Source of the DNA: Thainema sp.
GTDB lineage: Bacteria > Cyanobacteriota > Cyanobacteriia > Phormidesmidales > Phormidesmidaceae
Assembly: GCA_052168235.1 (NCBI GenBank)
Contig: JBQLZK010000002.1
Coordinates: forward strand, 265,456-329,455
Reading direction: 5' to 3'
Length of the DNA: 64,000 bases
Part shown: piece by piece, positions 18,386-38,005 of the stretch
How positions within the stretch are numbered: the first letter of the stretch is position 1
How the letters are laid out: each line of letters starts with the position of its first letter
Made by a program: the position numbers and the translations under genes
The notes under the pieces: generated by a model
Told to the model about the DNA's origin: nothing
The model's database searches: none
What the model saw: the letters and a program-made list of their open reading frames with translations, nothing else

Positions 18386-18703
18386 CTATAGCTCGTTTGC
18401 TTCATCGTCACGCAGTTCTTCATAGAGCAGGTCGAGGCCGATGAGGACTCGTTCGCGGTCAGACAGGTCGCCAATAATTTTGCGGACGGGTGGCGGCAGA
18501 ATTTTGGATAGGGTCGGTGTCGCGAGGATTTTGTCTTCTTCTGCAAGCTGGGGATTTTTCAACACATCAATTACTTTCAACGCATAGACACCCTGAAACT
18601 CCTGTTCCAGAATGTTGTTGAGTGTTTTGAGTGCCCGAATCGAGTTGGGCGTATTGCCTGCCACATAGAGCTTCAGCACGTAGGTTTTTTTCAGAGTATT
18701 CAT
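18386..18703 (-). CDS. kaiB: Circadian clock protein KaiB
   Basis: [16 protein letters not shown]...KILATPTL...RKIIGDLS. Start at MNTLKK (18703). Confidence 0.97.
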
Positions 18704-18995
18704 AGTTTGGCAGCACGGATAATCGATGTGACTAGTTAGAAATCGTGACAGAATATCATTCACTCAATTTATTCACTCAATGTAGACGCTTTCCACGAGT
18801 AATCTCGCGAAGCGTTAGGGTCTTTTACGGATTGCTCTAAAAACTTGATTGATGAGCTTGACTTCCGATGATGATGAGTGATGACGAAAGGTTGCGATCG
18901 CAGATTATCCTAATCCGCAGATCATCCTAATCCATCAGGCTTGCATGCGGGTTCATTGTTACCGCCGTTATCGCCAGGTTATCACCAGCTCGTGA

Positions 18996-20803: not shown

Positions 20804-23800
20804 ATGACATTGCCCAACCTACGGCAATTTATTGAACCCGTTCCAAGCTGCTATCGGCATGACTGTTTGGAGCAGGTTTTTCAATGGCTGCAATCCGACG
20901 GAGTGCAAAACTCCGCCTTTAATACGGTTGTCATTCTAGATGCTGATCATTACCCGATTGGCACCATCCGCCCCCTGTCCTTGGTCACATGGCTGATCAA
21001 TCACCTGCCGTCGTTCAGCGATTGGCATATTACTCTTGAGCAGTTTATCGCCACTCAGGCTCAACCAAACTTGATTCAGCCAGTTACGGTGGTTTCGGTG
21101 GCCTTACCGATTAGCCAACTGCCGATTCACGACCTGCCGCCTGATACGGCCCATTTGGCCGTGGTGGATCAGAATGATCACTATTTGGGGCTGGTAAATC
21201 TCACGCGGTTGATCCAATCAACCCGCGCTGAACTCAATCAGCCGTCCTGGTTGCCGCCCAAGCGTTCGTCTGGACAAGTCAAAGCACGGCAGGCTTCGCA
21301 GCCGCTACCGATTGGCTATGAGTCAATCTCGTTACAAACTGAGGCGCTCGAAGCCCTCAGCGACCACGAGCCGTGGGTACAGATCTTTGACCGTGTCCCC
21401 ATTCCGCTCATGCTGCAAACTGAGCATGGGCAGGTACTCAAGCGGAATCGAGTTTGGCGATCGCAAGTTGGCGATGTCACCTATGCGGCAGCAATTCATC
21501 CAGAGGCCATTCCGTCGCCCCAGTTTTCTAACTCACCCGAGCATCGTCCCTCAACGCGATCTGATCAGCGAGCGGACGATTCATCCGGCATCCACTTATC
21601 CCAACCTGTCCAGCCGTCATCGACCGCTAAACCAACTCGTTCTACATCGATGCCGGAGCCGGAGCGGACATTTCTGACCACTAGCAGTACCACTAGCAGC
21701 ACGACTAGCATGACCGCAGGGTCTGCTACTGCCCGCCAGATCCCTGACGGCTTGCCCGTGGGCTATTGCCAGTTGGAAGCCGAAACTAATACTCACCTGT
21801 GCGCCTGCCTTAATCAAGATGGCGAGGTGCATGTTTGGCGATTCGTGCGGATCGATTTGGGCTTTTCGGCGCAGCAGCTCCTGACAGTAGCGGATCAGAT
21901 GCCGCTGATATCAGCTGCTTTGGCGTCCTCTACTGTGTTGCCTCCCCCCTTAGCTACTCAAATCGGCGATTCCCAGGTGCAACAGCACCATCAGATCGTA
22001 AATGAGACAGAATTGCTGCCGCTTTCGAACGCACTTCTATCGGAGCGGGTCTGGCTCGTGGTGGCGCAGGATACGACGACTCAGCGGCAGTTGAGCCAAG
22101 AACTTGCGGCCAAGAATGCTGATTTGGTACAGCTCAATCGGTTTAAGGACGAGTTTTTGGCCTGCATTAGCCATGAGCTGAAAACGCCGTTGACGGCTGT
22201 GCTGGGTCTGTCGCATCTGTTGAAGAATCAGGCTTTGGGGCAGTTGAACCAGCGACAGGCTCGCTATACCCATTTGATTCATGAAAGCAGTCGTCATCTG
22301 ATGGCGATTGTGAATGACATTCTCGATTTGACGCGGATTGAGACAGGACAGCTTGACTTAAATTTTGTGCCGATTACGCTGCGAACGGTTTGTGACAAGG
22401 CAATTCGGCAAGCTTACAGTATGGTGCAGCTTGTCGCTCCCCAAAGTTCAACATCGGCATCCTCCGCGCCTCCTGTGGGCCAATCTGATCCAGCGGCTGC
22501 TACGTCCTTAGAGGCAGAAACCGGCAGTGCGCGATCGCAACAGATCATCCTCGACATTGATCCCAAAATTCACACCATGTATGCTGATGAGCTGCGGCTC
22601 CAGCAGATGTTGACTCACCTATTGAGCAACGCGCTGAAGTTTACGGAACTCGGCGATCAGACTGGACTGAGAGTTCGGCTATGGGACGGCTGGATTGCTT
22701 TTACGGTTTGGGATACGGGAATTGGCATTCCTCAGAAAAAGCAGCATCTGATTTTTCAGAAATTTCAGCAGCTTGAGAATCCTCTGACTCGTCAGGTCGG
22801 TGGCACCGGATTGGGATTGGTTTTAACCCAGCGGCTGGCGCGGCTGCATGGGGGAGATGTGACGTTTACGTCTACCGAGGGCGAGGGCAGCGAGTTTACG
22901 CTGCTGCTGCCGCCTGCACCACCTCAGGAGCAGCTCAATCTCAACCTGGACTTGGCGATGGCGATTCATCAACCGTCGCCTAATCGGCTAGTGCTGATTG
23001 TGGAAGCCGTGCCGCGATTTTTAGAAGACCTGCATGAGAAAGTGGCCCAGTTGGGCTATCGAGTTGCGATCGCACGATCTGGCCCAGAAGCTCTGGAAAA
23101 AATTCGTCGCTTACAGCCGTGCGCCATTTTTGTGAATCCACTGTTGCCGATGCTGTCCGGTTGGGATTTGCTGACGCTGCTTAAAACAGATGAAGATACC
23201 TGTCGGTTACCCGTAATCATGACCGGGACACCTGTGGAAGAGGAACAGGCGATCGCTTGCGGAGCGGATAGCTTCCTCACGCTGCCTGTGCAAACGACTC
23301 TGTTGCAAACTGTGCTCGATCGGCTGGAGGAACCGGAGGAGCCGAACGAGAGCCTGAACAATCTACAGGGAATTACCGCGCTGTATCTGGGGGCAGACTT
23401 GACGCTGACCAATCCGGCGGCCTATCCAACGTCGCTCAGCGGTCAGCTCAATCAGTTGCTTCATACCCACCACTGCCACGTGCTGGAGGCGGATGATCTA
23501 GATCAAGCTGAAATGCTAGCGCGGGTCTGGAAACCCAATGTGCTGCTGATTGGTACGCTGTCGGTTGATCCGCTGGTCTACCTACAGCAGCTCAGCGACC
23601 ACGAATTTCTGTCTACGCTGCCAATTGTGCCGCTGACGCCAGAGTTTGCCACGGTAATCGATCAGGTGCCCCAACTGCGGCTGTTCCCCTATCAGCCCAA
23701 TGCGATCGCAACTTCCATTTCGGTTCATTTGGACGGCAAAGCCCTATTGCGAATGATTCAAACCGCTGTCGGACTGACCCATCAGCCCCATATTTGTCTG

Positions 23801-24337
23801 CTTGATCCCGCAATGCTCAGCGCTAGCCAACCAGATTCTGTTAAGGATGTGACTGAACATTCAGGTCGCGATCGCACCGTTCATCCCAGTACCGCTAGCC
23901 CAACTCATGCGGCAAAAATCGATGCGGCTAAAGGTTTGGTCACCCTGGCCCATTATTTGCAAGCCTCAGGCATTCAGGCTCAAATTGGTCAAACTTGGCA
24001 GTCCGTGGAGCAGCAGGTTTATCATCACACTACCGATCTGCTGCTAATTTCACTTCAGCCCAACTGGAGCCAATCCAATCTGCTGCATAAACTGAGCCAA
24101 TTCCGACAGAGCAAAAACTGTCCGCTGATTTTGGCCATCATGAGTTCTGCGATCGCATCTGACCAAGAAGGACAGGAAAGCTTGACCGAGCTGCGTCGTC
24201 TTTGTCAGATGATCGTACCGGCTTCCATCCCGGTGCGAGAGTTGCTCAATCAAATTCATCAGCTCTTGAGTCACGGTTACGGAACTCAATCAGTTCCAAA
24301 TGATGCCGAAACAATTCATAATAAAACCCCAGAATAG
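20804..24337 (+). CDS. Hybrid sensor histidine kinase (CBS-like/PAS-like N-terminus, HisKA, HATPase, degenerate receivers)
   Basis: FLACISHELKTPL, LLSNALKFT, DTGIGI, GTGLGL. The receiver reads AIFVNPLLP, with Asn at the phospho-Asp position. Confidence 0.9.
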   Translation: MTLPNLRQFIEPVPSCYRHDCLEQVFQWLQSDGVQNSAFNTVVILDADHYPIGTIRPLSLVTWLINHLPSFSDWHITLEQFIATQAQPNLIQPVTVVSVALPISQLPIHDLPPDTAHLAVVDQNDHYLGLVNLTRLIQSTRAELNQPSWLPPKRSSGQVKARQASQPLPIGYESISLQTEALEALSDHEPWVQIFDRVPIPLMLQTEHGQVLKRNRVWRSQVGDVTYAAAIHPEAIPSPQFSNSPEHRPSTRSDQRADDSSGIHLSQPVQPSSTAKPTRSTSMPEPERTFLTTSSTTSSTTSMTAGSATARQIPDGLPVGYCQLEAETNTHLCACLNQDGEVHVWRFVRIDLGFSAQQLLTVADQMPLISAALASSTVLPPPLATQIGDSQVQQHHQIVNETELLPLSNALLSERVWLVVAQDTTTQRQLSQELAAKNADLVQLNRFKDEFLACISHELKTPLTAVLGLSHLLKNQALGQLNQRQARYTHLIHESSRHLMAIVNDILDLTRIETGQLDLNFVPITLRTVCDKAIRQAYSMVQLVAPQSSTSASSAPPVGQSDPAAATSLEAETGSARSQQIILDIDPKIHTMYADELRLQQMLTHLLSNALKFTELGDQTGLRVRLWDGWIAFTVWDTGIGIPQKKQHLIFQKFQQLENPLTRQVGGTGLGLVLTQRLARLHGGDVTFTSTEGEGSEFTLLLPPAPPQEQLNLNLDLAMAIHQPSPNRLVLIVEAVPRFLEDLHEKVAQLGYRVAIARSGPEALEKIRRLQPCAIFVNPLLPMLSGWDLLTLLKTDEDTCRLPVIMTGTPVEEEQAIACGADSFLTLPVQTTLLQTVLDRLEEPEEPNESLNNLQGITALYLGADLTLTNPAAYPTSLSGQLNQLLHTHHCHVLEADDLDQAEMLARVWKPNVLLIGTLSVDPLVYLQQLSDHEFLSTLPIVPLTPEFATVIDQVPQLRLFPYQPNAIATSISVHLDGKALLRMIQTAVGLTHQPHICLLDPAMLSASQPDSVKDVTEHSGRDRTVHPSTASPTHAAKIDAAKGLVTLAHYLQASGIQAQIGQTWQSVEQQVYHHTTDLLLISLQPNWSQSNLLHKLSQFRQSKNCPLILAIMSSAIASDQEGQESLTELRRLCQMIVPASIPVRELLNQIHQLLSHGYGTQSVPNDAETIHNKTPE

Positions 24338-24946: not shown

Positions 24947-25768
24947 ATGAGTCCTTTGCCCACGTTCCGCTTCTCAACCGATTTGCTTGGTCATTACCGC
25001 TGGCTGAGTCAGCAGGACTTAACCGTTATCGATGTCGAAACTACGGGTTCGCGTCCGCCCCACCACCGCGTGATTGAGATCTCAGTTCTGCGCACCAATT
25101 TGCGAGACGGCATTCTGGATCAGCAAACCCACCTGCTTCAACCCGGTGTAGCCATCCCAGAACGAATTGTCCAGTTTACGGGCATTACCCCTGCCATGTT
25201 GACCAATGCCGCTACGCCGGAGCAGATTTGGCCTAGCTTATTGCCCTTGCTCTCCAATGGCATTCTTACGGCTCACAATATTCAGTTTGACTACAGCTTT
25301 TTGCAGGCCGAATATAGTCGGCTTCAACTGGCTTATCACCGTGATGACGCTGATCTTTTTTGTACTGTACGCCTTGCTCGGCTGATGTTGGCTGATTTGC
25401 CTTCCCGCAGCTTGCCCGATCTCGTTCAACATTTCCAGTTCCCAATTGCCAAATCCCATCGCGCTGCTGCTGACACGCTAGCCTGCTGGTACCTTGCACA
25501 GCACCTGCTCACCCGTATTCAGAACGACGATGAGCAGACCCTCTTGGACTGTATTGGGCAAGAATGGCTGCCGATTCAAATGGTTACGCCTCTGTTTGGC
25601 TGCTCTCGCCGTAGGGCAAAGGCCATGCTTGAAGCGGCTGGTGTGCCGACTCGATCTTCTCGTCGCCGCAAAGCGCCGATGTATCGGCGGCAGGATATTG
25701 AGCAGTTTTATTGGCAGCGGCAGGAGGGGCTGGCTGCGTCTGGGGAGGAGCAGTTGGTGGGAGGGTAG
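24947..25768 (+). CDS. DEDDh 3'-5' exonuclease (DnaQ-like) with C-terminal HTH-like extension
   Basis: DVETTG, AHNIQFD, HRAAADT. Confidence 0.88.
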   Translation: MSPLPTFRFSTDLLGHYRWLSQQDLTVIDVETTGSRPPHHRVIEISVLRTNLRDGILDQQTHLLQPGVAIPERIVQFTGITPAMLTNAATPEQIWPSLLPLLSNGILTAHNIQFDYSFLQAEYSRLQLAYHRDDADLFCTVRLARLMLADLPSRSLPDLVQHFQFPIAKSHRAAADTLACWYLAQHLLTRIQNDDEQTLLDCIGQEWLPIQMVTPLFGCSRRRAKAMLEAAGVPTRSSRRRKAPMYRRQDIEQFYWQRQEGLAASGEEQLVGG

Positions 25769-26071
25769 GAGAGTGGGAGGAGGACAGGTTGGGAATGGGG
25801 TTGGAGGTGGATTAGGACGTTAAACGTTCACTTTTTATTTCTTGATTGTCTAAAAATATTTAAAGAGGCGCTATAAGGTGGATGGGACTTAGGTTGTAAG
25901 TCCTTGTATGTGGTGCTTAATTTTTATAGGTTTTGTCTGTTCTCATCTGAGGTTCGGTTAAAACCCGATGGTTTCTTTTCTGTGAAAGCTGGGCTGAACC
26001 AAGCTTTCACAGAAAAGAAATTGGGTTCTTATACACGGACTTGGATATTTGCAGCAATGTTGAGGACGTTC

Positions 26072-26118
26072 TTGACATTGTGTATATTTAACACTTACAC
26101 TTGGTGTATATTGAACAC
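26072..26118 (+). promoter_or_regulatory. Sigma70-type promoter overlapped by two tandem GTGT-N7-ACAC palindromes (NrtR-box-like)
   Basis: TTGACA (26072)-N18-TACACT (26096). Boxes GTGTATATTTAACAC (26080-26094) and GTGTATATTGAACAC (26104-26118). Confidence 0.6.
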
Positions 26119-26125
26119 GAAGGCT

Positions 26126-26950
26126 ATGGATAACCAGTTTGAAATTATTGGCGGTTCTGTTCTCGGATGGGAGCATCGGCGGATAGGCCGCAATAATCAA
26201 GATGCCTATCACTGGCTGGTGACTAAAGAGGTAATCGTGGCGCTGGTTTGTGATGGTTGCGGCAGTGGTGCCCATAGCGAAGTGGGAGCGAAGGTTGGGG
26301 CTCAGCTGGTAGCCCAGGCTTTTCTCTCGGTGTTGAAGCGGCTGAATCCTGCTACCGAGGCGGAGTTTTGGATGCAGGTGCGGCAGATGGTGTTACTGCA
26401 GATTCATGATTGGATTTCGGCAATGGGCAGTGAATATCTGCACACGTTGCGAGATTACTTTCTGTTCACGACTGTTGGGGCACTGATCACACCCGCGCAA
26501 ACCTGGATCTTTTCCATTGGTGATGGTGCGATCGCACTGAATGGTGAACTCACTCCGCTTGGCCCTTTCCCAGACAATGCTCCGCCCTATTTGGCCTATG
26601 GTCTGATTCAAGACTATGTTGAAGGACTGACGCCGGAGGATTTGCGGTTTCAGGTGCATCATCAGGTTGCAACTGCCGAGGTGCAGTCAATTTTGCTCGG
26701 TACCGATGGCGTCTTGGACTTGGCGGCACTGGAAGATTCACGGCTGCCGGGGAAGGAGGAACGGGTTGGCCCGATTGCCCAGTTTTGGCAAGAAGACCGC
26801 TATTTCAAAAATCCACTCCGCGTCAGCCGCCAGCTAGCCATGATGAATTACGAGGCGGTGCAGGTGGACTGGGAGTCGCTCACGCTCAATCGGCGCGGCG
26901 GTTTGCTCCCGGACGATACGACGCTGATTGTGATTCGGCGTAAAGCTTAG
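26126..26950 (+). CDS. PP2C-like phosphatase (TerY-P/YegK type)
   Basis: GSVLGWEH...NNQDA, VCDGCGSG, SIGDG, LGTDGV, DDTTLI. Start at MDNQFE (26126). Confidence 0.88.
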   Translation: MDNQFEIIGGSVLGWEHRRIGRNNQDAYHWLVTKEVIVALVCDGCGSGAHSEVGAKVGAQLVAQAFLSVLKRLNPATEAEFWMQVRQMVLLQIHDWISAMGSEYLHTLRDYFLFTTVGALITPAQTWIFSIGDGAIALNGELTPLGPFPDNAPPYLAYGLIQDYVEGLTPEDLRFQVHHQVATAEVQSILLGTDGVLDLAALEDSRLPGKEERVGPIAQFWQEDRYFKNPLRVSRQLAMMNYEAVQVDWESLTLNRRGGLLPDDTTLIVIRRKA

Positions 26951-26993
26951 AGATTATCCACCTCTCACCCATCCACCCCAAAAGGAGGTACCT

Positions 26994-27770
26994 ATGCTTG
27001 GTGCGATCGCAGGTGACTTAATTGGTTCTGTTTATGAATTTAATCCGATTAAAACGAAGGATTTTGAACTGTTTTCCCCTGGCTGTGGCATTACTGACGA
27101 TTCCATTTTGACAATTGCGATCGCAGATGCCATTCTGCACGATGACGATTATCAGGACAAGATTCAGTCTTATGCTCGCCGCTATCCGAATCCGACGGGT
27201 AGCTATGGAGCGCGGTTTTCGAAATGGATTTGGTTGGATGATCCGCAACCCTACAACAGTTGGGGCAATGGCTCGGCGATGCGGGTGAGTGCGGTTGGCT
27301 ATGCGTTTGATGATTTGGATACGGTGCTGCATGAAGCGAAGCGAACTGCGGTTGTGACGCACGATCATCCAGAGGGTATCAAGGGGGCGCAAGCGACGGC
27401 GGCGGCGGTGTTTCTGGGTCGCATGGGTCAGTCGAAGGCTGAGATTAAAGCTTACATCGAGCAGACGTTTGGCTATGATTTGAGCCGTTCGCTGGATGAG
27501 ATTCGCCCGACTTATGAGTTTAATGAGTCGTGTCAGAGGACGGTGCCGGAGGCGATGACGGCGTTTTTGGCATCAACGGATTTTGAGGATGCGATTCGGA
27601 ATGCGGTGTCGCTGGGGGGGGATTGCGATACGTTGACCTGTATTACGGGCGGTGTGGCGCAGGCGTTTTATGGTGGTGTGCCGGATGCGATCGCAACTCA
27701 GGTTTTAGGTTATCTGGATGATGATTTGAAGGAAGTTACCGTTAGGTTTATGGGGCGATTTTGCTCATAA
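26994..27770 (+). CDS. ADP-ribosylglycohydrolase (DraG/ARH family)
   Basis: MLGAIAGDLIGS, ITDDS, GNGSAMR, THDHPEG, GGDCDT; strong RBS AAGGAGG. Confidence 0.92.
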   Translation: MLGAIAGDLIGSVYEFNPIKTKDFELFSPGCGITDDSILTIAIADAILHDDDYQDKIQSYARRYPNPTGSYGARFSKWIWLDDPQPYNSWGNGSAMRVSAVGYAFDDLDTVLHEAKRTAVVTHDHPEGIKGAQATAAAVFLGRMGQSKAEIKAYIEQTFGYDLSRSLDEIRPTYEFNESCQRTVPEAMTAFLASTDFEDAIRNAVSLGGDCDTLTCITGGVAQAFYGGVPDAIATQVLGYLDDDLKEVTVRFMGRFCS

Positions 27771-28005
27771 GTTGCTCATAAAAACAACGTTGCTTCTGAG
27801 GGGACTAGCCCCCTCAGGCTCCCCCACTGGGGCATTCCGCTGCCCCAGACCCCGGCGGACGAGGTGATCGGTGGGTGGTGTGATGTCGCTTCGCATCGGT
27901 GGTGTCGTAAGGACGTTATTTGTTGTGTCTGGGCTTGGCGTGGAACGCCAAGTAAGTGCAACACCTATAAGCTTGTCCCCCATTCTTCCTTTCTATCTCT
28001 ACTGT

Positions 28006-28053
28006 CTCACTCTTCACTCCTCACGCCTCTCGCCTCACGCCTCACGCCTCACT
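28006..28053. repeat. Short tandem heptamer repeats (STRR-like, CCTCACG)
   Basis: ctcactcttcactcctcacgcctctcgcctcacgcctcacgcctcact. Confidence 0.6.
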
Positions 28054-28068
28054 TCATCCCTAACTCCT

Positions 28069-30006
28069 ATGCTTTTCCTCAATCACAAAAAACTCACTCT
28101 CAAACCTCAGCAGCTTCTCGGCAAGGGTGGCGAGGCGGAGGTGTATCGGCTGAATCGTCAGGTGGCGGTGAAGCTGTTTAAGCGGCCTGATCATGCGGAT
28201 TTTCGGGGGCAGGTGCAGGAGCAGCAGGCGGCGCGGAATCGGATTGCGGTGCATCAGCAGAAGCTGCCGCTGTTTCCGGGGAATTTGCCGGAGCGGGTGG
28301 TGGTGCCGATGGATTGGGTGCGGGATGATCGGCAGCAGATTGTGGGCTACACGATGCGGTTGCTGACGGGGGTGGAGCCGCTGCTGCGATTTTGCGATCG
28401 CAATTTCCGGCAATCGATTCCGCATCAGCGGGTGGTGCAGATTTTTCAGGATTTGCACGATACGGTGTCGAAGCTGCATTTTGCGAGTGTGGTGATTGGC
28501 GATTTCAATGACCTGAATGTGCTGGTGCGGGGGACGGAGGCGTTTCTGATTGATGCGGATTCGTTTCAGTTTGAGCCGTTTACCTGCGGTATGTTTACGG
28601 CTCGGTTTGTCGATCCGCTGCTCTGCGATCCGCAGGCGAATCAGCCGCTCTTGCAGCGTCCTCACACGGAGCAGTCGGACTGGTATGCGTTTACGGTGAT
28701 GCTGATGCAGTCGCTGCTGTTTGTTGATCCGTTTGGCGGTGTTTACAAGCCCCAGGATGCGAGTCGGCGGGTGCCCCAGGCGGCGCGATCGCTGCATCGC
28801 ATTACGGTGTTCCACCCGGAGGTGAAGTATCCCAAGCCTGCGCTGCCCTATGACCGTCTGCCGGATGAGCTGCTGCACTATTTTCAGTCAGTGTTTGAGC
28901 GCGATCAGCGGGGCGAGTTTCCCCGTCTGTTGCTCAATAGCCTGCACTGGATAACTTGTTCTACCTGCGGCGCGGAACATGCGCGATCGCACTGTCCGGT
29001 CTGTGCCCAATCCCAACCGGGTGCGGTGGTTTCGGTCACTGTCGTGCGAGGTCAGGTAACGGCGACGCGCCTGCTGCAAACTGAGGGACTAATCCAGTTC
29101 GCCACTGTAGCCGCAGGCCAGTTGCAGTGGGTGCTGTGGCGGCAGGGACAGTTCCAGCGGGAGGACGGTTCCGTAATCATCACGGGTGATCTACAGCCCA
29201 ATCTGCGCTGGCGAATTCAGGGCGATAAAACCCTGGTCGGTCAGGCGGGACAGGTGATGGTGTTGCAGTCCGGCCAAGTCGTACAGCGGTTGGCGGTAGA
29301 TATTTACGGTGCGATCGCACAATTTGAAACCTTACCTGCTCACACCCGCAGCACTCAGCCTTTATCTAGCGGTACATCCGAAGTCGCTGCCGTCTGGCTC
29401 CAGCAGGGGCAACTGTTACGCACTGACCGCTTAGGCGCAACCGTCATGGGAACCGTCTTGCCCGAACGAACTCAAATCTGGTGCGGCTCCACCTTTGGCT
29501 TTGGCTTCTACCAGGCAGGCGATTTAACTGTCGCATTCGTCTTTGATCTTGACCGTTCCGGCCTCAACGATCGCGTTCAACTGCCCACCTGGCGCGGTCA
29601 GCTCATCGCTGCTAACTGTGCCTTCGGTTCCGACTACTGCTGGCTGTTTTTGATCACACAGACACAAGGCCAACTCCAGCGCCACTGTACAATTATCCGC
29701 CGCGATGGTCAGGTTATAGGAAGTGCGATCGCAATTGACTCCACCCAGCCGAATCACTGGTTAATGCAGATCGGACAATCTGCCATTGCCCAAGACCCCT
29801 GCCCCTTCTGCCCGGTCTCTCGCTTCCTCCTAATCGCCACCGACGACGGCATCATCCGCATCGAAGTCCACAACGGCCAGCTCACCCAAACCCGCACCTT
29901 CCCCGACACCGAACCCTTCGTCGATGCCAGCACCCAACTCCTCCCCGCTCCCGATGGTCTTTACGCGGTTCGGATGCATGATGTTCAGCATTTGAAGATG
30001 AATTAG
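28069..30006 (+). CDS. YegI-like protein kinase with CxxC-CxxC zinc ribbon and beta-rich C-terminal region
   Basis: LGKGGEAEVY, VAVKLF, VIGDFNDLNVLV, LIDADSFQ, DWYAF; CSTC...CPVC. Start at MLFLNH (28069). Confidence 0.85.
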   Translation: MLFLNHKKLTLKPQQLLGKGGEAEVYRLNRQVAVKLFKRPDHADFRGQVQEQQAARNRIAVHQQKLPLFPGNLPERVVVPMDWVRDDRQQIVGYTMRLLTGVEPLLRFCDRNFRQSIPHQRVVQIFQDLHDTVSKLHFASVVIGDFNDLNVLVRGTEAFLIDADSFQFEPFTCGMFTARFVDPLLCDPQANQPLLQRPHTEQSDWYAFTVMLMQSLLFVDPFGGVYKPQDASRRVPQAARSLHRITVFHPEVKYPKPALPYDRLPDELLHYFQSVFERDQRGEFPRLLLNSLHWITCSTCGAEHARSHCPVCAQSQPGAVVSVTVVRGQVTATRLLQTEGLIQFATVAAGQLQWVLWRQGQFQREDGSVIITGDLQPNLRWRIQGDKTLVGQAGQVMVLQSGQVVQRLAVDIYGAIAQFETLPAHTRSTQPLSSGTSEVAAVWLQQGQLLRTDRLGATVMGTVLPERTQIWCGSTFGFGFYQAGDLTVAFVFDLDRSGLNDRVQLPTWRGQLIAANCAFGSDYCWLFLITQTQGQLQRHCTIIRRDGQVIGSAIAIDSTQPNHWLMQIGQSAIAQDPCPFCPVSRFLLIATDDGIIRIEVHNGQLTQTRTFPDTEPFVDASTQLLPAPDGLYAVRMHDVQHLKMN

Positions 30007-30185
30007 AAGGGGCTGTAAAGGCTGTAGAGGGCTGTAAAGGAGAGAAAGCCCGCAGCACGATGCTGGCAGGAAGGCAGATCCTCCTACTCCCTTGACTCCC
30101 TCTATACCTAGCAAACAAAAGCCATTCATCCCGATACGATTACCCCTGACTCCCTTTACAGCCTCTACAGCCTTTACAGCCCTTT
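30007..30185. repeat. Intergenic element bounded by inverted arrays of a 9-mer (GGCTGTAAA x3 / TTTACAGCC x3)
   Basis: GGGCTGTAAAGGCTGTAGAGGGCTGTAAAGG...CCTTTACAGCCTCTACAGCCTTTACAGCCC. Confidence 0.65.
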
Positions 30186-30227
30186 TTCAAAATCTTACCC
30201 ACCTTACCTACACGGAAACTTAACACC

Positions 30228-31268
30228 ATGACCACCCTCACCCAACTTCCTATCCCCACCTTCTTTAACCTTCAAACCGTTGGCGAGGTCTGGCGCGTGC
30301 CTTACCAAGAGCGTGCCGCTCAGGCTAAAGACTGGAGCAAACAGCACGGTCTCACCCCTGCGGCCAAGGACAAAACCCGCATCTGCCTGATGGCGATTGA
30401 TGTGCAAAACACGTTCTGCATTCCCAACTTTGAACTGTTCGTCGGTGGCCGTTCCGGTATGGGCGCTGTGGAAGACAACATTCGGCTCTGCCAGTTCATC
30501 TACCGCAACCTGGGCATCCTCACCGAAATTGCACCCACGATGGACACCCATACGGCCATGCAGATCTTCCATGCCGAATTCTGGGTGAACGACGCAGGCG
30601 AGAATCCCGCCCCGATGACGATGATTCATGCCGATGATGTCAAACAGGGCAAATGGAACGTCAATCCTGCGATCGCACATAGTCTCGCCCAAGGTAACTA
30701 CATGGCGCTGCAAAACTATGCTTTGCACTACGTTGAGCAGCTAGACACCGACGGCAAGTATCCCTTGACCATCTGGCCCTATCACTCGATGCTGGGCGGC
30801 ATCGGTCACGCTCTGGTTTCCGCTGTGGAAGAAGCCTGCTTTTTTCACAACATCGCTCGCAGCAGCCAAACCAATTTTGAAATCAAAGGCGGCAATCCCC
30901 TGACTGAAAACTACTCCGTCCTCCGTCCTGAAGTGCTCGAAGATGCCAGCGGTCGCCCCATTGCCCAGAAAAACTCTCGCTTTATCCAAAAGCTGCTCGA
31001 CTTTGATGCAGTTGCGATCGCAGGTCAAGCCAAAAGCCACTGTGTCGCCTGGACGATTCAAGATTTACTGGACGAAATCAACGCCAAAGACCCCACTCTC
31101 GCCAAAAAGGTTTACCTACTGGAAGACTGCTCATCCCCGGTCGTCGTCCCCGGCGTCGTAGATTTTACCGACCAAGCCGACCAAGCCTTCCAACGCTTCG
31201 CCAATGCCGGAATGCACCTCGTCAAATCCACCGACGACATCACCTCCTGGCCCAACCTGGATTTATAA
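30228..31268 (+). CDS. Isochorismatase-superfamily cysteine hydrolase, nicotinamidase-like
   Basis: [12 protein letters not shown]...[20 protein letters not shown]: the D-K-C triad and PncA-type metal ligands. Confidence 0.85.
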
Positions 31269-31271
31269 ACA

Positions 31272-31296
31272 AAAAGGTGGGCTATACCCACCTTTT
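31272..31296. terminator. Bidirectional terminator
   Basis: AAAAGGTGGG-CTATA-CCCACCTTTT between convergent genes. Confidence 0.65.
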
Positions 31297-31317
31297 CAAA
31301 ACTCTCAAAATTTCGGT

Positions 31318-31554
31318 CTATTCCGCTTGTTGGTCACTGTTTTCCCAGTTTTTCCATGCATGATACCCAAAACACAAACCCGCACCAAGGATTACAGGAG
31401 CAGCAAGTGGTACAGCAATAGTTGTTGTCGTAGTTAAACCAACCCACCCCGCAACACCAGCCGCTGGTGATGTGATAGTTGCCACTGTTAGAGAACCTGG
31501 AATTGCACTAGCTGCAAGGGTTGCAAATTTACCAAACGAAGCAAAGTCTCCCAT
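31318..31554 (-). CDS. Small hydrophobic Gly/Ala/Thr-rich protein
   Basis: 78 aa, GAGG RBS, 12 nt downstream of the next ORF. Confidence 0.6.
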   Translation of the reverse strand: MGDFASFGKFATLAASAIPGSLTVATITSPAAGVAGWVGLTTTTTIAVPLAAPVILGAGLCFGYHAWKNWENSDQQAE

Positions 31555-31566
31555 GTTCTTTACCTC

Positions 31567-31785
31567 TTAATTACCACTTGCTTTCTTAAGGCCAAATGCA
31601 GCTAAGCCAACTACAGCACCAGCCGCAGCGACAGGAGCCATACCAACGCCTACTGCCGTACCTAAAGCAGCTATTCCTATGCCACCAGCCCAAGCTGAAA
31701 ATCCAGCTCCTGCTGCTGCTCCAGCCGCTGCAAAAACAGCAGCTTCACGACCGTTTGAACCACCACTCTTGTCTCTATTTGCCAT
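31567..31785 (-). CDS. Small glycine-zipper membrane protein
   Basis: AAAGAAAGAG...GGIGIAALGTAVGVGMAPVAAAGAVVGLAAFG. Confidence 0.7.
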   Translation of the reverse strand: MANRDKSGGSNGREAAVFAAAGAAAGAGFSAWAGGIGIAALGTAVGVGMAPVAAAGAVVGLAAFGLKKASGN

Positions 31786-31948
31786 GAGTTATCCCTTAGG
31801 TGAAAACATCACAAGTCTGCATCCTGAGAGGCTATGTAAAGAAAAGTGACAAGCTCTTTTTCGAAGCTAACACAGCTATTCTCTTGCCGTCATCGGTATC
31901 AGAACAAAGCAATGATTTTTTAGAATTTTTGTTGAGATCTTGGCAACT

Positions 31949-31979
31949 GTAGGGTGCCGTTAGCGAAGCGTAACGCACC
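31949..31979 (+). repeat. REP-like hairpin
   Basis: GTAGGGTGCCGTTAGCGAAGCGTAACGCACC: a GTAG head followed by a palindrome. Confidence 0.55.
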
Positions 31980-32042
31980 GTTCCATCGAGCTTAACAGTG
32001 CACGTACATCTCACGACATGGATGTGTTGAATTATTTGAACG

Positions 32043-32549
32043 CTAACCTTTACGGCGCTTATGCCCTCTAACAAATGTTCCATCCTTGCGACGGTACGAA
32101 GACACATCGGTGTACTGATCACCTAGCAATTTATTCTTTATGGCTTCTCCTCCAAGAGCCATACCTATGCCCCCCACAAATTTGGCCACTGTGAAAACTC
32201 CACCAGCTACCCCAGCCACTCCATCAGCAACACCTTTAGCTGCATCAGCAGTACCACCAGCGACACCTTTTACAACGTTGGATGTGCTTTTGGCTATCGC
32301 ATTGACCTTGCCAGATGGAGATCGTTTGTATTCTTCCAGTCGCCGCTGTTCTTCTTCAATTGCTCGCAGTCTTGCTTCTTCTGCTAATCGAATTTTTTCT
32401 AACTCTTGCTGGCGAAGCATTTCTGCTCTCCGTTTTCGAGCTTCAGCTTTCCTAATAAAACTTTTCAGTATCGAGTAGACAATGAAAAATATGCATGCAC
32501 CCACAATCAGCGTTAAACCAACCAGTAAGACCAAAGAGGTAGTTTCCAT
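32043..32549 (-). CDS. Membrane-anchored coiled-coil/glycine-zipper protein with basic C-terminal motif
   Basis: N-terminal TM segment, charged coil, GVAGG repeats, terminal VSSYRRKDGTFVRGHKRR. Confidence 0.65.
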   Translation of the reverse strand: METTSLVLLVGLTLIVGACIFFIVYSILKSFIRKAEARKRRAEMLRQQELEKIRLAEEARLRAIEEEQRRLEEYKRSPSGKVNAIAKSTSNVVKGVAGGTADAAKGVADGVAGVAGGVFTVAKFVGGIGMALGGEAIKNKLLGDQYTDVSSYRRKDGTFVRGHKRRKG

Positions 32550-32708
32550 ACGATTGAGGAGAGATGAAGATTATATAAAACAGACTACCCAGAAAATTAC
32601 GTAGCTGAACGGACTTTACGAGTATCTTTACAGATATATAACATGCCCTGTGGCAACGCTTATCCACAATGCGTCAATGAAAATCCGTTTTCACTTTGTA
32701 CAAGCTCT

Positions 32709-33131
32709 ATGTCCACTCAAAAAATCACAATTGAGTTACCAGATTTACTGCTACAGCAGTTAAGGCGAGTAGCTGAAGTCACTCATCAATCTTTAGATGT
32801 TGTAATTACTCAAAGTTTATCGGGTAATCTTCCACCTTCTGTTGATCATGTTGAAGTTGAGCAACAGGCTGAATTACTGACTATGCAAACATTTACGGTT
32901 GATCAACTACAAGCAATAGCTCATGCCACTATTCCAATTGATCAACAGCATCGCCATGAGTTTTTACTCGAAAAGAATCAGCAATCAGCTCTTGCTGAAG
33001 ATGAACGCCAAGAATTAACACAACTGAGGGCAAAAGTTGATCAGCTAATGCTCAAAAAAGCTTACGCCTGGGCAGTTTTAAAGTGGCGCGGAGAGCGAAT
33101 TCCACCGTTAGAAGAAGTTGTCCCAGGATAA
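32709..33131 (+). CDS. Antitoxin-like partner of the HNH nuclease
   Basis: MSTQKITIELPD...LLEKNQ...ERQELTQL...LKKAYAWAVLKWRG; its stop directly abuts the HNH start. Confidence 0.7.
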   Translation: MSTQKITIELPDLLLQQLRRVAEVTHQSLDVVITQSLSGNLPPSVDHVEVEQQAELLTMQTFTVDQLQAIAHATIPIDQQHRHEFLLEKNQQSALAEDERQELTQLRAKVDQLMLKKAYAWAVLKWRGERIPPLEEVVPG

Positions 33132-33548
33132 ATGAGTATTTCCGCAACTCTTCGTGCTCAAATGCAAGCTCAAGCAGATTATCGCTGTGAATACTGCAAA
33201 ACTTCTTCTCGCTTAGTTGGTATGCCGTTAGTAATTGATCACATTCAACCTCAAGCGGAGGGAGGCAGCGATAATCCTGATAATTTGGCGGCTGCTTGTT
33301 ATCGCTGTAATGAATTTAAAGGTGCCAAAACCTTTAGCGTTGATCCAGCTACTAATCAGCTAGCGAAATTATTCAATCCTCGCACTCAGCAATGGTCAGA
33401 CCATTTTGCTTGGATTAACGGTGGTACGCACATTGCTGGGAACACCCAAAGTGGCCGAGCGACGGTAATTGCACTACGGCTCAATAATGATCAAATTGTC
33501 TCAGCCCGCACTCTGTGGATTACAGTTGGCTGGCATCCACCTAGCTAA
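33132..33548 (+). CDS. HNH endonuclease
   Basis: CEYC, IDHIQP..GG, NLAAACYRCNEFK, LFNPR...W.DHF. Confidence 0.9.
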   Translation: MSISATLRAQMQAQADYRCEYCKTSSRLVGMPLVIDHIQPQAEGGSDNPDNLAAACYRCNEFKGAKTFSVDPATNQLAKLFNPRTQQWSDHFAWINGGTHIAGNTQSGRATVIALRLNNDQIVSARTLWITVGWHPPS

Positions 33549-33705
33549 AGCTTTCTAACCACAATACTTCAACTAATACAAAGTTTGTCGAGGCGATCGC
33601 AACTTTACTCGCCGTTACAAAAATGCGATCGCACTCACAGAATCCGTGTGTCTACTTTCACCATCAACCATCAACTATTAACCCTATTCCCAAAAGGTAA
33701 CTACT

Positions 33706-34497
33706 ATGTCCCAATCCGCTAATCTCAATCAACTCTTCCAATCCGCCCACCAAGAAGGCTTACTCTCACCCGCCTCCATGCAGGCGCTCAACGTATTCGA
33801 TATTGGTGCTCAGATTCAAGCTGGGCTGGGTGTTCACGTGGACGATGTAATGTCTAGCGAAGTTGTCCTTGTCACCATCATGCCGGATGACTCTGGTTCA
33901 ATTCGCTTTGGGGGCAATGCGGCCACGGTGCGGGCGGGGCACAATACGGTTTTGGATGCGCTGCAAAGTTCGCCTCAGAAAGACAGCATTCTGATTCACA
34001 ATCGCTATTTGAACGGTACAGTCCTGTATCCGTACTGCGCGGTTGACCAAGCGGTGCGAATGGATACTCAAAATTACGATCCAAATCAGGGAACTCCCTT
34101 ATACGAACAAACCGTCGTGTTGCTGGGTACGGTGATTGCCAAAGCGCAGGAATTTGCCGACAATGGTGTGCCAGTCCGCACAGTAACGCTCATTATTACT
34201 GATGGGGCGGACGAGCATTCCGGTCGCACAACGGCGAAGCAGGTCAAATCTCTGGTGCAGGACATGCTGCGTTCTGAAAATCACATCATTGCGGCGATGG
34301 GCATTGATGATGGCCATACTGATTTTCGGCAGGTGTTTCAGTCGATGGGGCTGCGGGATGAGTGGATTTTGACACCAGGGAATAGTCAGAAAGATATTCG
34401 GCAGGCATTCCAGATTTTTTCACAATCGGCAGTGCGCGCCAGCCAAAGTGCGGGTAGCTTCAGCCAAACTTCACTGGGTGGATTCGGTAATCCGTAA
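33706..34497 (+). CDS. vWA-domain protein (TerY-like)
   Basis: MIDAS motif DDSGS, GTPLY, IITDGAD, AAMGI. Confidence 0.82.
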   Translation: MSQSANLNQLFQSAHQEGLLSPASMQALNVFDIGAQIQAGLGVHVDDVMSSEVVLVTIMPDDSGSIRFGGNAATVRAGHNTVLDALQSSPQKDSILIHNRYLNGTVLYPYCAVDQAVRMDTQNYDPNQGTPLYEQTVVLLGTVIAKAQEFADNGVPVRTVTLIITDGADEHSGRTTAKQVKSLVQDMLRSENHIIAAMGIDDGHTDFRQVFQSMGLRDEWILTPGNSQKDIRQAFQIFSQSAVRASQSAGSFSQTSLGGFGNP

Positions 34498-34748
34498 CAA
34501 CCATTCTCGCAACTGGCACAGGGCGAGATTACCCGTAGGGGGTAGTTCTGTGGAACCGTAATTTTGCCGTAGGATCGACACTGTTTCCAGGATATACATG
34601 AAGTTTCGGCATTTTGTAGTCCGTAATCCAGCGTGACCACCTCAAAAATTGCCACAATATTACCGAGATGCTGAGTTCAGACTGCGTAGTTTTATCTATG
34701 ACATTCACTCGAACTCATTTAGCATCTACCTGAAATCGGAGTTCCCTC

Positions 34749-35300
34749 ATGCTGCCCCCCGTTCCTGTGCAATCACCGTCATCATCCTCGTTATCTGTTT
34801 CCACTTGTATCAAAGCTAAGCCATATCCCAAAACCATCCAACCGACCTCCCAGCCTGTTCCGGCAGTGGAGTTTGTTCAAATTAGTTTTGAGGCACTATC
34901 GGCATTTGATCGAGTAACCACTCAGTTTGAGTCTTTAGGTGTGCGGTTTCACAATGCGATCGCACTTAAACCCTCTAATCCCGTTTTTCCTCAAGATGAG
35001 GAAGCGTGTGTGTTGCTGCCAACGGGCAATAACACCTCGCTCACGCTGGAATTTCTTCAGCCGATGGAGTGGGTAGAGGTTCACGTATCCAGCGTTCAGT
35101 CTGTGCGAATGCGCGGCATGGATGCCTCTGATACCTCCATTTCTGAGGCTGGTGATGCCTATGACTACTGCAATCTAGGTGCCCATCCTTGCCATGAGCT
35201 GCCACACCAGTGCCTGCGAGTTGCAGCTGCCGGATTATCGAAAGTGGTGATTGAATCGAATACGCCACTGACGCTTAACAATATTGCCTTTGGCCGCTAA
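34749..35300 (+). CDS. Hypothetical protein (beta-rich)
   Basis: 183-aa ORF containing a HIP1 site; no family recognised. Confidence 0.6.
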   Translation: MLPPVPVQSPSSSSLSVSTCIKAKPYPKTIQPTSQPVPAVEFVQISFEALSAFDRVTTQFESLGVRFHNAIALKPSNPVFPQDEEACVLLPTGNNTSLTLEFLQPMEWVEVHVSSVQSVRMRGMDASDTSISEAGDAYDYCNLGAHPCHELPHQCLRVAAAGLSKVVIESNTPLTLNNIAFGR

Positions 35301-35571: not shown

Positions 35572-37734
35572 CTACATCGGGTGAGTGTCTGACATATCGG
35601 TGGTGTCTGACCTCATAAATGTCGTGGCGATCATTTCTTCCTTACGCTGTGATTGATAGACCCGATAAACAACCACTGCGACTCCTGCTACGATGCTGGT
35701 TGCCAAGGGTGCAGCGAGCGGTATCCAGCCGTTTTGGGTAAACAGAATGGCGCTCGTGCCCACGATGACGATCAGTAAGCTAGTGCCACCCAGGGCTAAA
35801 ACGATCGGTCGGCGTAAACTCCACGCTAAGCTGCCACCTGCGATCGCACATAGAGCCATCCAGCCAATTTCAGTCCAATCCGGCCAGAACCAATACAATG
35901 CTGCTTGTTCAGACTCCAGGGCGGCGGACAGGATTTGGCTCACCATTTGGGCATGAACCGTCACGCCGGGCATTTGCAACTCGGTGTCGCGGCGTCCGGC
36001 AGTATAGGGCGTATAGAACACATCTTTACTGCTAGGAGCGGTGGTACCAATCAGCACCGCTTTACCTCGCACCCAGTCAGGCGGCACATTGCCAGCTAGG
36101 ACTTCGCTGAGGGAAATGATGCGGGTCGCCTGATTGGCAGAGCGGTAGTGCAGCAAGAGCTGATAGCCCATAGAGTCTACGTGCTGATAGCCGCCGGAGG
36201 AGGAACGGAGCTGATCAAAAACGGTTTCCTGGAGCTGAAGCAAATCGGGATTCTCAGCGTGGTTTTGCGGCAGGATATTGTCGGCTTCTAGATACTCCAG
36301 CGCCACCCGCAGCGAAAAGGAAAAAAGAACCTGATTCTGATGGGTGGCAAACATCAGGTTGCGCCGCACCACGTTGTCGGTGTCGATAGGAATATCGTTA
36401 AAGCCGACTCGTGAAGGAGGAACGACCTCGGGCGGTGGAATTTCGAGCTGATCGCCCTGATTGCCAATGTTCGCGATCGCAATTACATTATCATCGGCAA
36501 ACTGCTCCATTAGGGCTTCGTGACCGGGTTCCTGGGGCAGTTCCCGATACAGATCCACGCCAATCACGCGCGGATCGTACTGCTGTAAGGTTGCGATCGC
36601 ATCGGCAATGCTCTGGTCAGACGGCGTGGCTCGCTGGAGTTCCCGCAAGTCGGCTTCGGTAATCTCGACTACCAGCAGTCGATCATCAATGCCTAGATCC
36701 GGCTGTAGTCGCACCATCTGGTCATAGGCCCGCAGTTCCAGCGGCTCAAACCAGCCGAGCTGTCGCGCTCCGGCACAGAGGCCCAGTGCTGCCGCACTTG
36801 CGATCGCAACGACGCGTACACCTTTTACCAAGCGCTGACGCGGTGTTTCGAATGCGGAGATCTGGGTCCAGTCCAGTTCCACTGGCTCTCGAAATGACGG
36901 GTCGTCCGGCAATTCATCCAAACGCTTCAGATCGTTCAGCACCTCTTTGGCAGACTGATAGCGTCGCGAGATCTGAGATCGCGTCATCTTTTTCAGCAGC
37001 AGCTTTAATCCTTCGCTGATTTGAGCATGCTGTTCCCACAGGAGTTCGGAGGTGCGTGGATCTTCCGATAGCTCTTGCGGCTGATAGCCGGTCAAGGCTT
37101 GAATCACCGTGATGCCCAGCGCATAAATGTCGCTACAGTAGCGCGGGCGACCTGCCAGCTGCTCGTGGGGCGTGTAGCCTTGGGTGCCAATGCCGACAGT
37201 GTAATCGGTTTGGCTATCGGTGCGGGTCGTTAGCTGGGTTTGAATTTCCTTGACTGCCCCAAAGTCAATCAAAACCAACTTGCCGTCGCGCCGCCGAATG
37301 ATGTTGCCGGGCTTGATGTCGCGGTGAATCACATGATTGTCATGTACAAAGCTCAAAACAGGCAGTACGTTTTCCAGCAGCCGGATAGCCTGTTCCTCAC
37401 CTAGTTGAAATCCGCCCGCCAGTTCCTCGCTGAAGGGATAGCCGTCAATAAATTCCTGAACGAAATAAAATTCGCCATCTTCTTCGAAAGAATCGACTAA
37501 CGCCGGAATCTGGTCATGCTGTCCCAGCTTGCGGAGTGCTTCCACTTCCGCATCAAACAATCGGCGGGCAACCTGCAAGAATTCGGGATCTTGGCTGCTG
37601 GGGCGCAGATGCTTGACGACGCAAATCGATCGCTCAGGGTGCTGCGTGTCTTCGGCCACATAGGTTTGACCAAATCCACCAGTCCCTAATATTCGCAGTA
37701 TTTTATAGCGTCCGGAGAGCAAGGCTTCCAGCAT
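35572..37734 (-). CDS. Ser/Thr protein kinase with CHASE2 sensor domain and C-terminal TM helices
   Basis: LGTGGFG, HRDIKPGN, IDFGAVK. CHASE2 motifs ELRAYD, IGVDLYR, DNVVRR, VLIGTTA, MPGVTVHAQ. Start at MLEALL (37734). Confidence 0.92.
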   Translation of the reverse strand: MLEALLSGRYKILRILGTGGFGQTYVAEDTQHPERSICVVKHLRPSSQDPEFLQVARRLFDAEVEALRKLGQHDQIPALVDSFEEDGEFYFVQEFIDGYPFSEELAGGFQLGEEQAIRLLENVLPVLSFVHDNHVIHRDIKPGNIIRRRDGKLVLIDFGAVKEIQTQLTTRTDSQTDYTVGIGTQGYTPHEQLAGRPRYCSDIYALGITVIQALTGYQPQELSEDPRTSELLWEQHAQISEGLKLLLKKMTRSQISRRYQSAKEVLNDLKRLDELPDDPSFREPVELDWTQISAFETPRQRLVKGVRVVAIASAAALGLCAGARQLGWFEPLELRAYDQMVRLQPDLGIDDRLLVVEITEADLRELQRATPSDQSIADAIATLQQYDPRVIGVDLYRELPQEPGHEALMEQFADDNVIAIANIGNQGDQLEIPPPEVVPPSRVGFNDIPIDTDNVVRRNLMFATHQNQVLFSFSLRVALEYLEADNILPQNHAENPDLLQLQETVFDQLRSSSGGYQHVDSMGYQLLLHYRSANQATRIISLSEVLAGNVPPDWVRGKAVLIGTTAPSSKDVFYTPYTAGRRDTELQMPGVTVHAQMVSQILSAALESEQAALYWFWPDWTEIGWMALCAIAGGSLAWSLRRPIVLALGGTSLLIVIVGTSAILFTQNGWIPLAAPLATSIVAGVAVVVYRVYQSQRKEEMIATTFMRSDTTDMSDTHPM

Positions 37735-38005
37735 AAGCAACGGGCACTTAACGTTCTTAGATCTTGGCACGACTCGCCCATTGGCTGGGAGAGTTTTGTC
37801 ATTTTGATGAAAATTAAAGCTCCGCTTAAGAGAATCAATGATTTGCAGGCAAAAATTGAGCCGATTGACCTGAACCATGATGGAGCCTCACCAAGAACTT
37901 TAACCAGGAACTTCATGGCGAGAATATGTCTGAGCGAGCGGAGTTATGCAGTGGGAAGGGGATAGATATACACTAAAGCGTTGATAGCTTGGCAAAGTTG
38001 AGAAG

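Follow-up and report, generated by a model that had tools for sequence, protein, structure and literature searches.

What joins a reversible phosphorylation module to enzymes that handle ADP-ribose and nicotinamide on a cyanobacterial chromosome? The question is raised by a 64,000-nucleotide stretch of contig JBQLZK010000002.1 (Thainema sp., assembly GCA_052168235.1), referred to below as the window, in which five co-oriented genes lie on the plus strand at 26126-34497. In order, they encode a PP2C-type phosphatase, an ADP-ribosylglycohydrolase (ARH), a YegI-like kinase, a long nicotinamidase-like hydrolase (here called ISO) and a vWA protein. A preliminary description of the sequence had claimed these genes as one five-gene cluster. 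We found all five in the claimed orientation but not contiguous, with an insertion of ~2.4 kb (31269-33705) setting the vWA gene apart from the other four. Four of the genes form a core, namely PP2C, kinase, ISO and the MIDAS vWA protein, to which some cyanobacteria add ARH between phosphatase and kinase. Our best explanation, to which we give a probability of roughly 55%, is a conserved operon of a nicotinamide adenine dinucleotide (NAD)-recycling regulon, inducible by ADP-ribose, in which a TerY-P-like phospho-switch controls or reports on nicotinamide deamidation.

We assessed the conservation of this arrangement in related loci, which were fetched with an alignment of kinase homologues, taking one genome per species. 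There were 493 pattern matches, 432 of them encoding a relative, and the best 80 loci were kept and searched by tblastn with the window proteins. Downstream of the kinase 62 loci could be evaluated; the other 18 were too short and were set aside. The order PP2C, kinase, ISO, vWA is kept in 55 of the 62 evaluable kinase-anchored loci, with ISO and vWA in the same orientation after the kinase at median gaps of 112 and 166 bp (the latter, between ISO and vWA, in loci without an insertion). This is far beyond chance, it makes ISO a core member of the cassette, and, for the check proposed in the preliminary description, it shows the hydrolase to be a conserved neighbour of the triad. Upstream, a PP2C homologue directly precedes the kinase in 75 of the 80 loci. 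The 55 loci include a complete Sorangium chromosome (L078), a member of the Desulfococcaceae (L063) and Entotheonella (L080), where the order is permuted and the ISO-vWA pair stands ahead of the PP2C-kinase pair. Many are metagenome bins labelled as other phyla, and these labels were taken as deposited. In a kinase tree of 69 rows, limited to kinase open reading frames (ORFs) of 550 aa or more and omitting 11 loci, the rows with non-cyanobacterial labels form one clade of 20 (SH-aLRT 100), and the gene order holds there too. Because the flanking genes differ between genera, selection rather than general synteny holds the four-gene cassette together.

We then considered how the cassette might be regulated. 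Exact GTGT-N7-ACAC palindromes occur only twice in the window, both 8-46 bp upstream of the PP2C start codon, against a chance expectation of ~0.72 per 64 kb. The distal copy lies in the spacer of a TTGACA-18-TACACT element that is the joint best-scoring promoter-like site in 25700-34800. The PP2C start at 26126 agrees both with its homologues and with the positions of promoter and operators. In total, 121 exact sites occur in the 1.19 Mb of the 80 loci. In the 300 bp ahead of PP2C, 46 of 73 loci carry at least two of these and a further 13 carry a single one; the sites share the consensus TaGTGTa..ACACTA, and in 45 of the 46 the distal one directly follows a TTGAC box. In short nrtR-PP2C intergenic regions a TTGACA box is followed directly by two GTGT-N7-ACAC copies, just as in the window. 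A relaxed pattern with one mismatch was uninformative (10 matches, 16.9 expected, none near vWA or ISO). According to the accessible text of Rodionov et al. 2008 (PMC2330246), the NrtR motif is in most cases a 21-bp palindrome with the core GT-N7-AC, and ADP-ribose suppresses the binding of NrtR to DNA. The paired sites fit this core and are predicted operators, which we infer to be bound by NrtR in this organism.

These data also bear on a simpler explanation, in which ISO is an ordinary salvage gene that came to lie beside an unrelated signalling triad by chance, the genes being neighbours by descent only. Cyanobacteria contribute many of the 80 loci, and their synteny could be inherited, yet the flanks vary from genus to genus around four genes that remain side by side, ~100-170 bp apart, and the same order is found in the non-cyanobacterial clade. 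PP2C and kinase do occur without ISO and vWA in 7 of the 62 loci, as such an explanation would allow; against this, it is PP2C, as the first gene, and not ISO that has the operator pair upstream. We consider descent alone very improbable.

In Spirulina-like taxa and a few other cyanobacteria, PP2C and kinase stand behind the same operator pair with no ISO or vWA gene in the 4-10 kb downstream. Loci without the downstream pair are L051, L053, L032, L061 and L045, which form one kinase clade, together with L073, L081 and L023. The cassette appears to be split in these taxa, whose relatives encode both ISO and vWA by source names.

Next, we examined the neighbourhood of the cassette by clustering 1,032 ORFs from the 80 loci. 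A fifth recurrent family was recovered, which is NrtR, a Nudix-related repressor of NAD metabolism, with NUDIX and NrtR_WHD domains (NCBIfam model NF050029 for the ADPR-responsive repressor, E 1.5e-55, 188 bits, below the model's 400-bit cutoff). Its gene is a neighbour in 35 of the 80 loci; of the 68 whose sequence reaches 1 kb or more beyond PP2C on its upstream side, 34 have it. Cyanobacteria carry it divergent from PP2C, and the other clade carries it in the same direction. Additional neighbours belong to NAD and ADP-ribose metabolism (Table 1), and 41 of the 80 loci have at least one gene of these kinds. The link to NAD and ADP-ribose made in the preliminary description is thereby strengthened by evidence outside the five genes: NrtR-type operators in the window and, in relatives, nrtR, pncB, nadK/nadD, nadE, prs, Nudix and NADAR genes. 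Its proposal to look for co-occurrence with nrtR and NAD-salvage genes gave a positive answer, with nrtR in 35 loci and pncB in 10.

The cassette resembles published NrtR regulons in its GT-N7-AC palindromes over the promoter, in the divergent or upstream nrtR and in the pncB, nadD, nadE and prs neighbours. A draG-type ARH adjoins nrtR in Streptomyces (PMC2330246, accessible part). The cyanobacterial regulon described there (pncB-nadD-nrtR-nadE, nadA, nadM-nadV) differs in that the accessible description contains no pncA, kinase, phosphatase or vWA gene. Unlike the linked published cases, the window lacks an nrtR homologue, and the regulator must therefore be encoded elsewhere.

What reaction would such an operon control? 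Searches of Pfam, NCBIfam and the PDB, by single sequence or by profile, gave nothing meaningful for ISO or vWA, and because identification from sequence alone failed, both families were reached through structure prediction and Foldseek. A PDB match from the sequence search, 8pjz, was discarded as a repeat artefact. AlphaFold models were built from alignments of 24 sequences and reached a moderate confidence (pLDDT 72.6 for ISO and 72.5 for vWA). The best PDB matches of the ISO model were 2wta and 2wt9, nicotinamidase of A. baumannii (probability 0.98-0.99, TMt 0.50, E 3e-3), with other cysteine hydrolases also among the fold matches. In a global hhalign comparison, ISO aligned with E. coli PncA at a probability of 93.9% (E 2.7e-8), which placed D58, H186, K220 and C272 at the DLQNDF, WPDH, KGENP and TDYC positions, respectively. 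All four residues are invariant in the homologue alignment, and we take the DLQNDF, KGENP and TDYC positions to be the catalytic Asp-Lys-Cys. D106-T-H108, which follows a predicted strand, is also invariant and may be the metal motif; the alignment puts the PncA DWH at I113-F114-H115. Homologues of ISO bear the source names isochorismatase or nicotinamidase-related amidase. The fold and the catalytic residues fit and the Pfam model does not, and we call ISO nicotinamidase-like with moderate confidence. The nicotinamidase-like hydrolase of the preliminary description is thus recovered by its predicted fold and by the alignment to PncA.

ISO could nevertheless act on a different amide-bearing pyridine or nucleoside-like metabolite, such as nicotinamide mononucleotide, nicotinamide riboside, NAD or an ADP-ribose derivative, or it could be a ligand-binding sensor. 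At 346 aa it exceeds the 213-aa E. coli PncA by ~130 residues, including large insertions, and it escapes PF00857; long nicotinamidases do exist, though, and a 327-residue Drosophila enzyme is among the fold matches (TMq 0.40). Canonical PncA-type genes occur besides ISO in L033 and L050, and in those loci the substrate of ISO may be different, but in 10 loci the cassette neighbours pncB, whose product acts directly after nicotinamidase. ISO is also always paired with vWA, in contrast to the PncA enzymes; the two are the most conserved pair and travel together in L080, and two loci have a second ISO paralogue after vWA. All of this would suit a separate function, but the residues aligned with the PncA catalytic Asp, Lys and Cys and with its metal-binding His are invariant. 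On balance another substrate seems doubtful to us, though by no means far-fetched, and we retain nicotinamide or a close derivative in our preferred explanation. The second paralogues are divergent (33-42% identity) and lie in non-cyanobacterial loci, at 14138-15211 of L031 and 7874-8878 of L070.

The predicted fold of the vWA protein matched vWA/MIDAS domains (Foldseek probability 1.00, E 7e-5). Its MIDAS residues D61, D62, S63 and S65 (DDSGS), T130 and D166 do not vary across 24 homologues, some of which bear the source name VWFA-domain protein. This upholds the intact MIDAS motif of the preliminary description, for a 263-aa protein that has no Pfam vWA match, the best being VWA_CoxE at E 0.073. 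Across named cyanobacteria and families, ISO and vWA show 74-82% identity (lower in some bins), compared to 45-57% for kinase and PP2C. Because they are the most conserved pair and move together in L080, we suspect that ISO and vWA interact.

The kinase carries the two motifs given in the preliminary description, VIGDFN and LIDADSF, the sequence reading VVIGDFNDLNVLV and FLIDADSFQF. It consists of a kinase domain (residues 1 to ~290), a CxxC-x8-CxxC zinc ribbon formed by Cys 297, 300, 309 and 312 (nt 28957-29004) and a C-terminal domain of ~330 aa. We compared 29 diverse homologues, with identities down to 33%, all of which keep the full-length architecture; G20, K35, H137, D145, N150 and D162 are invariant, and the zinc ribbon is kept in most. 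The family comprises 572 clusters (50% identity) at E <= 1e-30. The catalytic loop has an atypical xGD and D-x-D replaces DFG, both of which are also found in YegI. In the accessible text of the YegI study (bioRxiv 10.1101/819920), that kinase has VGD and DSD loops, the latter in place of DFG, and phosphorylates in vitro. The kinase described here is probably active as well, because its glycine loop, Lys35, xGD loop, Asn150 and D-x-D are invariant in the 29 homologues and YegI, with the same loops, phosphorylates. The C-terminal domain is conserved but without a known family: it gave no Pfam match, and a search with the C-terminal 328 residues gave no usable Atlas match.

The translation start of the kinase is likely 28069 rather than the GTG at 27871. 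The intergenic region between ARH and kinase (27771-28068) is unusually long at 298 bp, compared to ~30-170 bp in related ARH-bearing loci. Translated in the kinase frame, it is rich in Ser, Leu and Pro and looks repeat-like, and a small repeat element or an internal promoter may lie within it.

The preliminary description had likened phosphatase, kinase and vWA protein to the TerY-P triad, and all three components are indeed present: a PP2C, a YegI-type kinase with the zinc ribbon at the C-terminal side of its kinase domain, and a MIDAS vWA protein. The vWA protein keeps the full MIDAS, but its best Pfam match is not TerY-specific. The triad is also non-contiguous, with ISO between kinase and vWA in the 55 loci and the 2.4 kb insertion in addition in the window. 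The likeness to E. coli yegL/yegK/yegI, also proposed, stood for the kinase (23% identity to YegI over 286 aa, E 2e-11) and was absent or weak for its partners: PP2C showed no BLASTP similarity to PphC (E 26) and vWA matched YegL weakly (hhalign probability 30%). Compared to YegI, for which the accessible text reports two membrane helices (10.1101/819920), the kinase adds the ~330-aa C-terminal domain. The accessible TerY-P descriptions contain neither NrtR-type operators nor a NAD-gene neighbourhood, both of which are features of this cassette. Since the triad is non-contiguous, PP2C is unlike PphC and vWA is weak against YegL, we class the cassette on these comparisons as TerY-P-like and not as a member of the family.

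We then turned to ARH, which belongs to the ARH/DraG family by its Pfam match and its metal-binding TDD and DxDT motifs. Among solved structures its nearest relatives are ARH3 enzymes (E 9.5e-15), with which TDD and GGDCDT (GGDxDT) align. Of 75 loci, only 14 have ARH in the slot between the phosphatase and kinase genes; each of these is cyanobacterial, judged by its title or its place in the kinase tree. On that tree the 12 rows with ARH require at least eight gains or losses, six of them forced by well-supported branches. ARH is therefore an accessory gene, repeatedly gained or lost, and a fixed five-gene system, as first described, does not exist; of the two enzymes expected to be conserved neighbours of the triad, only the hydrolase is. 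Where both enzymes are present, it is reasonable to suppose that they handle the two products of ADP-ribosyl transfer. A Pseudanabaena locus (L075, 7279-9562) carries three tandem ARH copies, and L017 (4230-5794) carries two, one of them partial.

The preliminary description had interpreted the locus as a candidate defence system. In this scenario the triad would detect an ADP-ribosylating or NAD-depleting attack by phage or toxin, and ARH and ISO would reverse the modification and restore NAD, resulting in immunity or in recovery from abortive infection. TerY-P-like modules do include stand-alone anti-phage systems, and TerY-P triads occur in CoCoNuT restriction operons (PMC11090510, accessible part). 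The anti-phage system of Gao et al. 2020 is likewise a three-component module of vWA, PP2C and kinase, but its kinase is fused to an OB fold, according to the accessible part of PMC11090510, where the kinase described here has a zinc ribbon and an unassigned domain. No defence phenotype or context was found for this locus. PADLOC-DB 2.0 gave no match for PP2C, ARH, ISO or vWA, and for the kinase only weak generic matches to PD-T4-6 (best E 9e-6), a negative result of little weight since E. coli YegI, PphC and YegL also match no TerY-type model and the library may lack TerY-P models. Three kinds of ADP-ribosyl hydrolase (short ARH, long ARH and NADAR) have been recruited beside the cassette, yet 61 of the 75 loci have no ARH gene, the one that would most suggest a counter-attack. 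Induction by ADP-ribose would suit a response to NADase activity, but the regulator is a metabolic one and its companions are biosynthetic (pncB, nadD, nadK, nadE and prs). The presence of the cassette in distant phyla, with nrtR and vWA 63-68% identical between cyanobacteria and Sorangium, suggests horizontal spread; the high conservation of ISO and vWA across cyanobacterial families is nevertheless unlike that of fast-evolving immunity genes. Finally, the locus lies in an ordinary chromosome, beside kaiABC and with msrB, aroE and ribF-like genes, and not in a defence island. Taken together, we regard a defence role as unlikely.

In the NAD-salvage explanation that we prefer, the operon would be transcribed from the TTGACA promoter, which the two NrtR-type palindromic operators overlap. 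Cleavage of NAD would raise ADP-ribose, NrtR would leave its operators and the operon would be switched on. Since NrtR leaves DNA upon binding ADP-ribose, a by-product of NAD cleavage, we expect the operon to be on during NAD consumption. ISO would then deamidate nicotinamide, or a close derivative, and feed the PncB, NadD, NadE route. Where present, ARH would strip ADP-ribose from modified targets, which would reverse the modification and free more inducer. ISO, or the flux through it, would be gated by the vWA-kinase-PP2C triad, working as a reversible phospho-switch. In this scheme the nicotinamidase activity and all steps of phosphorylation or vWA binding are our proposals.

Several observations weigh against this explanation. 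ISO has no Pfam match even at E 10, including Isochorismatase (PF00857), its model is moderate and its best Foldseek E is 3e-3. The D106-x-H108 metal motif is our own reading, from which the alignment differs. In L033 and L050 the canonical PF00857 gene lies beside ISO in the same cluster. An exact operator upstream of PP2C is missing in 14 of 73 loci, and the seven loci mentioned above have neither ISO nor vWA within 4-10 kb downstream of the kinase. Homologues of nrtR, pncB, nadK/nadD and Nudix genes were not found within the 64 kb window, where, in addition, the insertion cuts vWA off from the promoter and vWA has no operator nearby. The 2008 list of the cyanobacterial NrtR regulon does not contain these genes in its accessible part (PMC2330246).

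The features of the locus are collected in Table 1, along with the genes that accompany the cassette in the related loci.

Table 1. Features of the cassette, its upstream region and the insertion in the window, and NAD- or ADP-ribose-related neighbours in the 80 related loci.
Feature	Position	Strand	Basis or occurrence
Sigma-70-like promoter, TTGACA-18-TACACT	26072-26101	+	10/12 matches
Distal NrtR-type operator (predicted), GTGTATATTTAACAC, in promoter spacer	26080-26094	.	GTGT-N7-ACAC match
Proximal NrtR-type operator (predicted), GTGTATATTGAACAC, ends 8 bp before PP2C start codon	26104-26118	.	GTGT-N7-ACAC match
PP2C-type Ser/Thr phosphatase, 274 aa	26126-26950	+	Pfam PP2C_2 PF13672, E 3.5e-22
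ARH, ADP-ribosylglycohydrolase, 258 aa, accessory	26994-27770	+	Pfam ADP_ribosyl_GH PF03747, E 4.1e-32
YegI-like atypical Ser/Thr kinase, 645 aa	28069-30006	+	Similarity to E. coli YegI
ISO, long nicotinamidase-like cysteine hydrolase, 346 aa	30228-31268	+	Predicted fold, hhalign to PncA
vWA protein, intact MIDAS motif, 263 aa	33706-34497	+	Foldseek, invariant MIDAS residues
Small Gly/Ala-rich ORFs of the insertion, outside the system	31318-31554, 31567-31785, 32043-32549	-	78, 72, 168 aa
162-aa protein of unassigned family and abutting HNH endonuclease (33132-33548), insertion, outside the system	32643-33548	+	ORFs, Pfam HNH
pncB			Neighbour in 10/80 loci
nadK or nadD-nadK fusion			Neighbour in 8/80 loci
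Nudix diphosphatase			Neighbour in 3/80 loci
nadE			Neighbour in 2/80 loci
prs			Neighbour in 2/80 loci
NADAR			Neighbour in 2/80 loci
Second, longer ARH			Neighbour in 2/80 loci
Canonical PF00857 PncA-type gene			Neighbour in 2/80 loci

The insertion between ISO and vWA contains three minus-strand ORFs for small Gly/Ala-rich proteins and a plus-strand pair that ends in an HNH endonuclease (Pfam HNH, E 7.5e-13; PADLOC PtuB-like HNH matches, E 7e-11). Among the 80 related loci it is shared only with L002, a near-identical locus (94-100% identical), and the same holds for the HNH pair at this position and for the 168-aa ORF, whose product is hydrophobic at its N-terminus and includes a charged stretch rich in Glu and Arg. 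Between ISO and this ORF, L002 is shorter than the window, lacking ~650 bp. A repeat, D2, connects 31632-31650 with 32153-32171 inside the insertion, and a repeat search of 31200-33760 gave no terminal repeats by which a mobile element could be delimited.

The surrounding sequence is that of an ordinary cyanobacterial chromosome, with kaiABC, msrB, aroE, Ycf66-like and ribF-like genes. On the minus strand, positions 16478-19943 carry the full kaiA-kaiB-kaiC circadian clock operon, which is followed by a gene for an 1181-aa hybrid histidine kinase (20792-24337). Two paralogous CHASE2-domain Ser/Thr kinases are encoded at 35572-37878 and 56019-58280; in L017 and L018 a homologue of the former stands next to the cassette, immediately before PP2C. 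A gene at 61540-62472 encodes a MoxR-type AAA+ ATPase that has no connection with the cassette; it also fits the bpMoxR model of MoxR-vWA-beta-propeller ternary systems (E 3e-11). At the start of the window, positions 1-2000 have a GC content of 0.387 compared to ~0.51 in the rest, and they adjoin a gene for a CHAT-FHA protein (2687-4339).

Control of NAD salvage in bacteria is usually described as transcriptional, by NadR, NiaR or NrtR. To our knowledge, TerY-P/YegI-type triads are widespread but have no defined physiological input or output in the accessible descriptions. Here such a triad lies inside an NrtR-type operon, beside the putative first enzyme of nicotinamide salvage, which offers ADP-ribose as the inducer, ISO as the enzyme and the kinase-phosphatase pair as the switch, all three as hypotheses. 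A search of the searchable full-text literature, which leaves some likely sources uncovered, gave no description of a kinase-PP2C-vWA-nicotinamidase cassette, nor of an NrtR regulon with such genes. For those cyanobacteria whose published NrtR regulon, as far as accessible, has pncB and no pncA, the cassette is also a pointer to the missing pncA-type step.

We tentatively propose, at less than even odds, that the cassette is a dedicated post-translational tier of NAD homeostasis, in which the NrtR-controlled switch senses NAD consumption, possibly through the kinase C-terminal domain or the vWA MIDAS site, and gates a specialised nicotinamidase by phosphorylation. Nicotinamide is a product inhibitor of sirtuins and ADP-ribosyltransferases, and such a tier would set both nicotinamide levels and the rate of NAD resynthesis. 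The cassette also bears on recovery from NAD depletion, which does not imply a role in defence. In conclusion, if this proposal is true, it would give the TerY-P/YegI class of triads a first physiological job, in a cassette that has been kept from cyanobacteria to myxobacteria.

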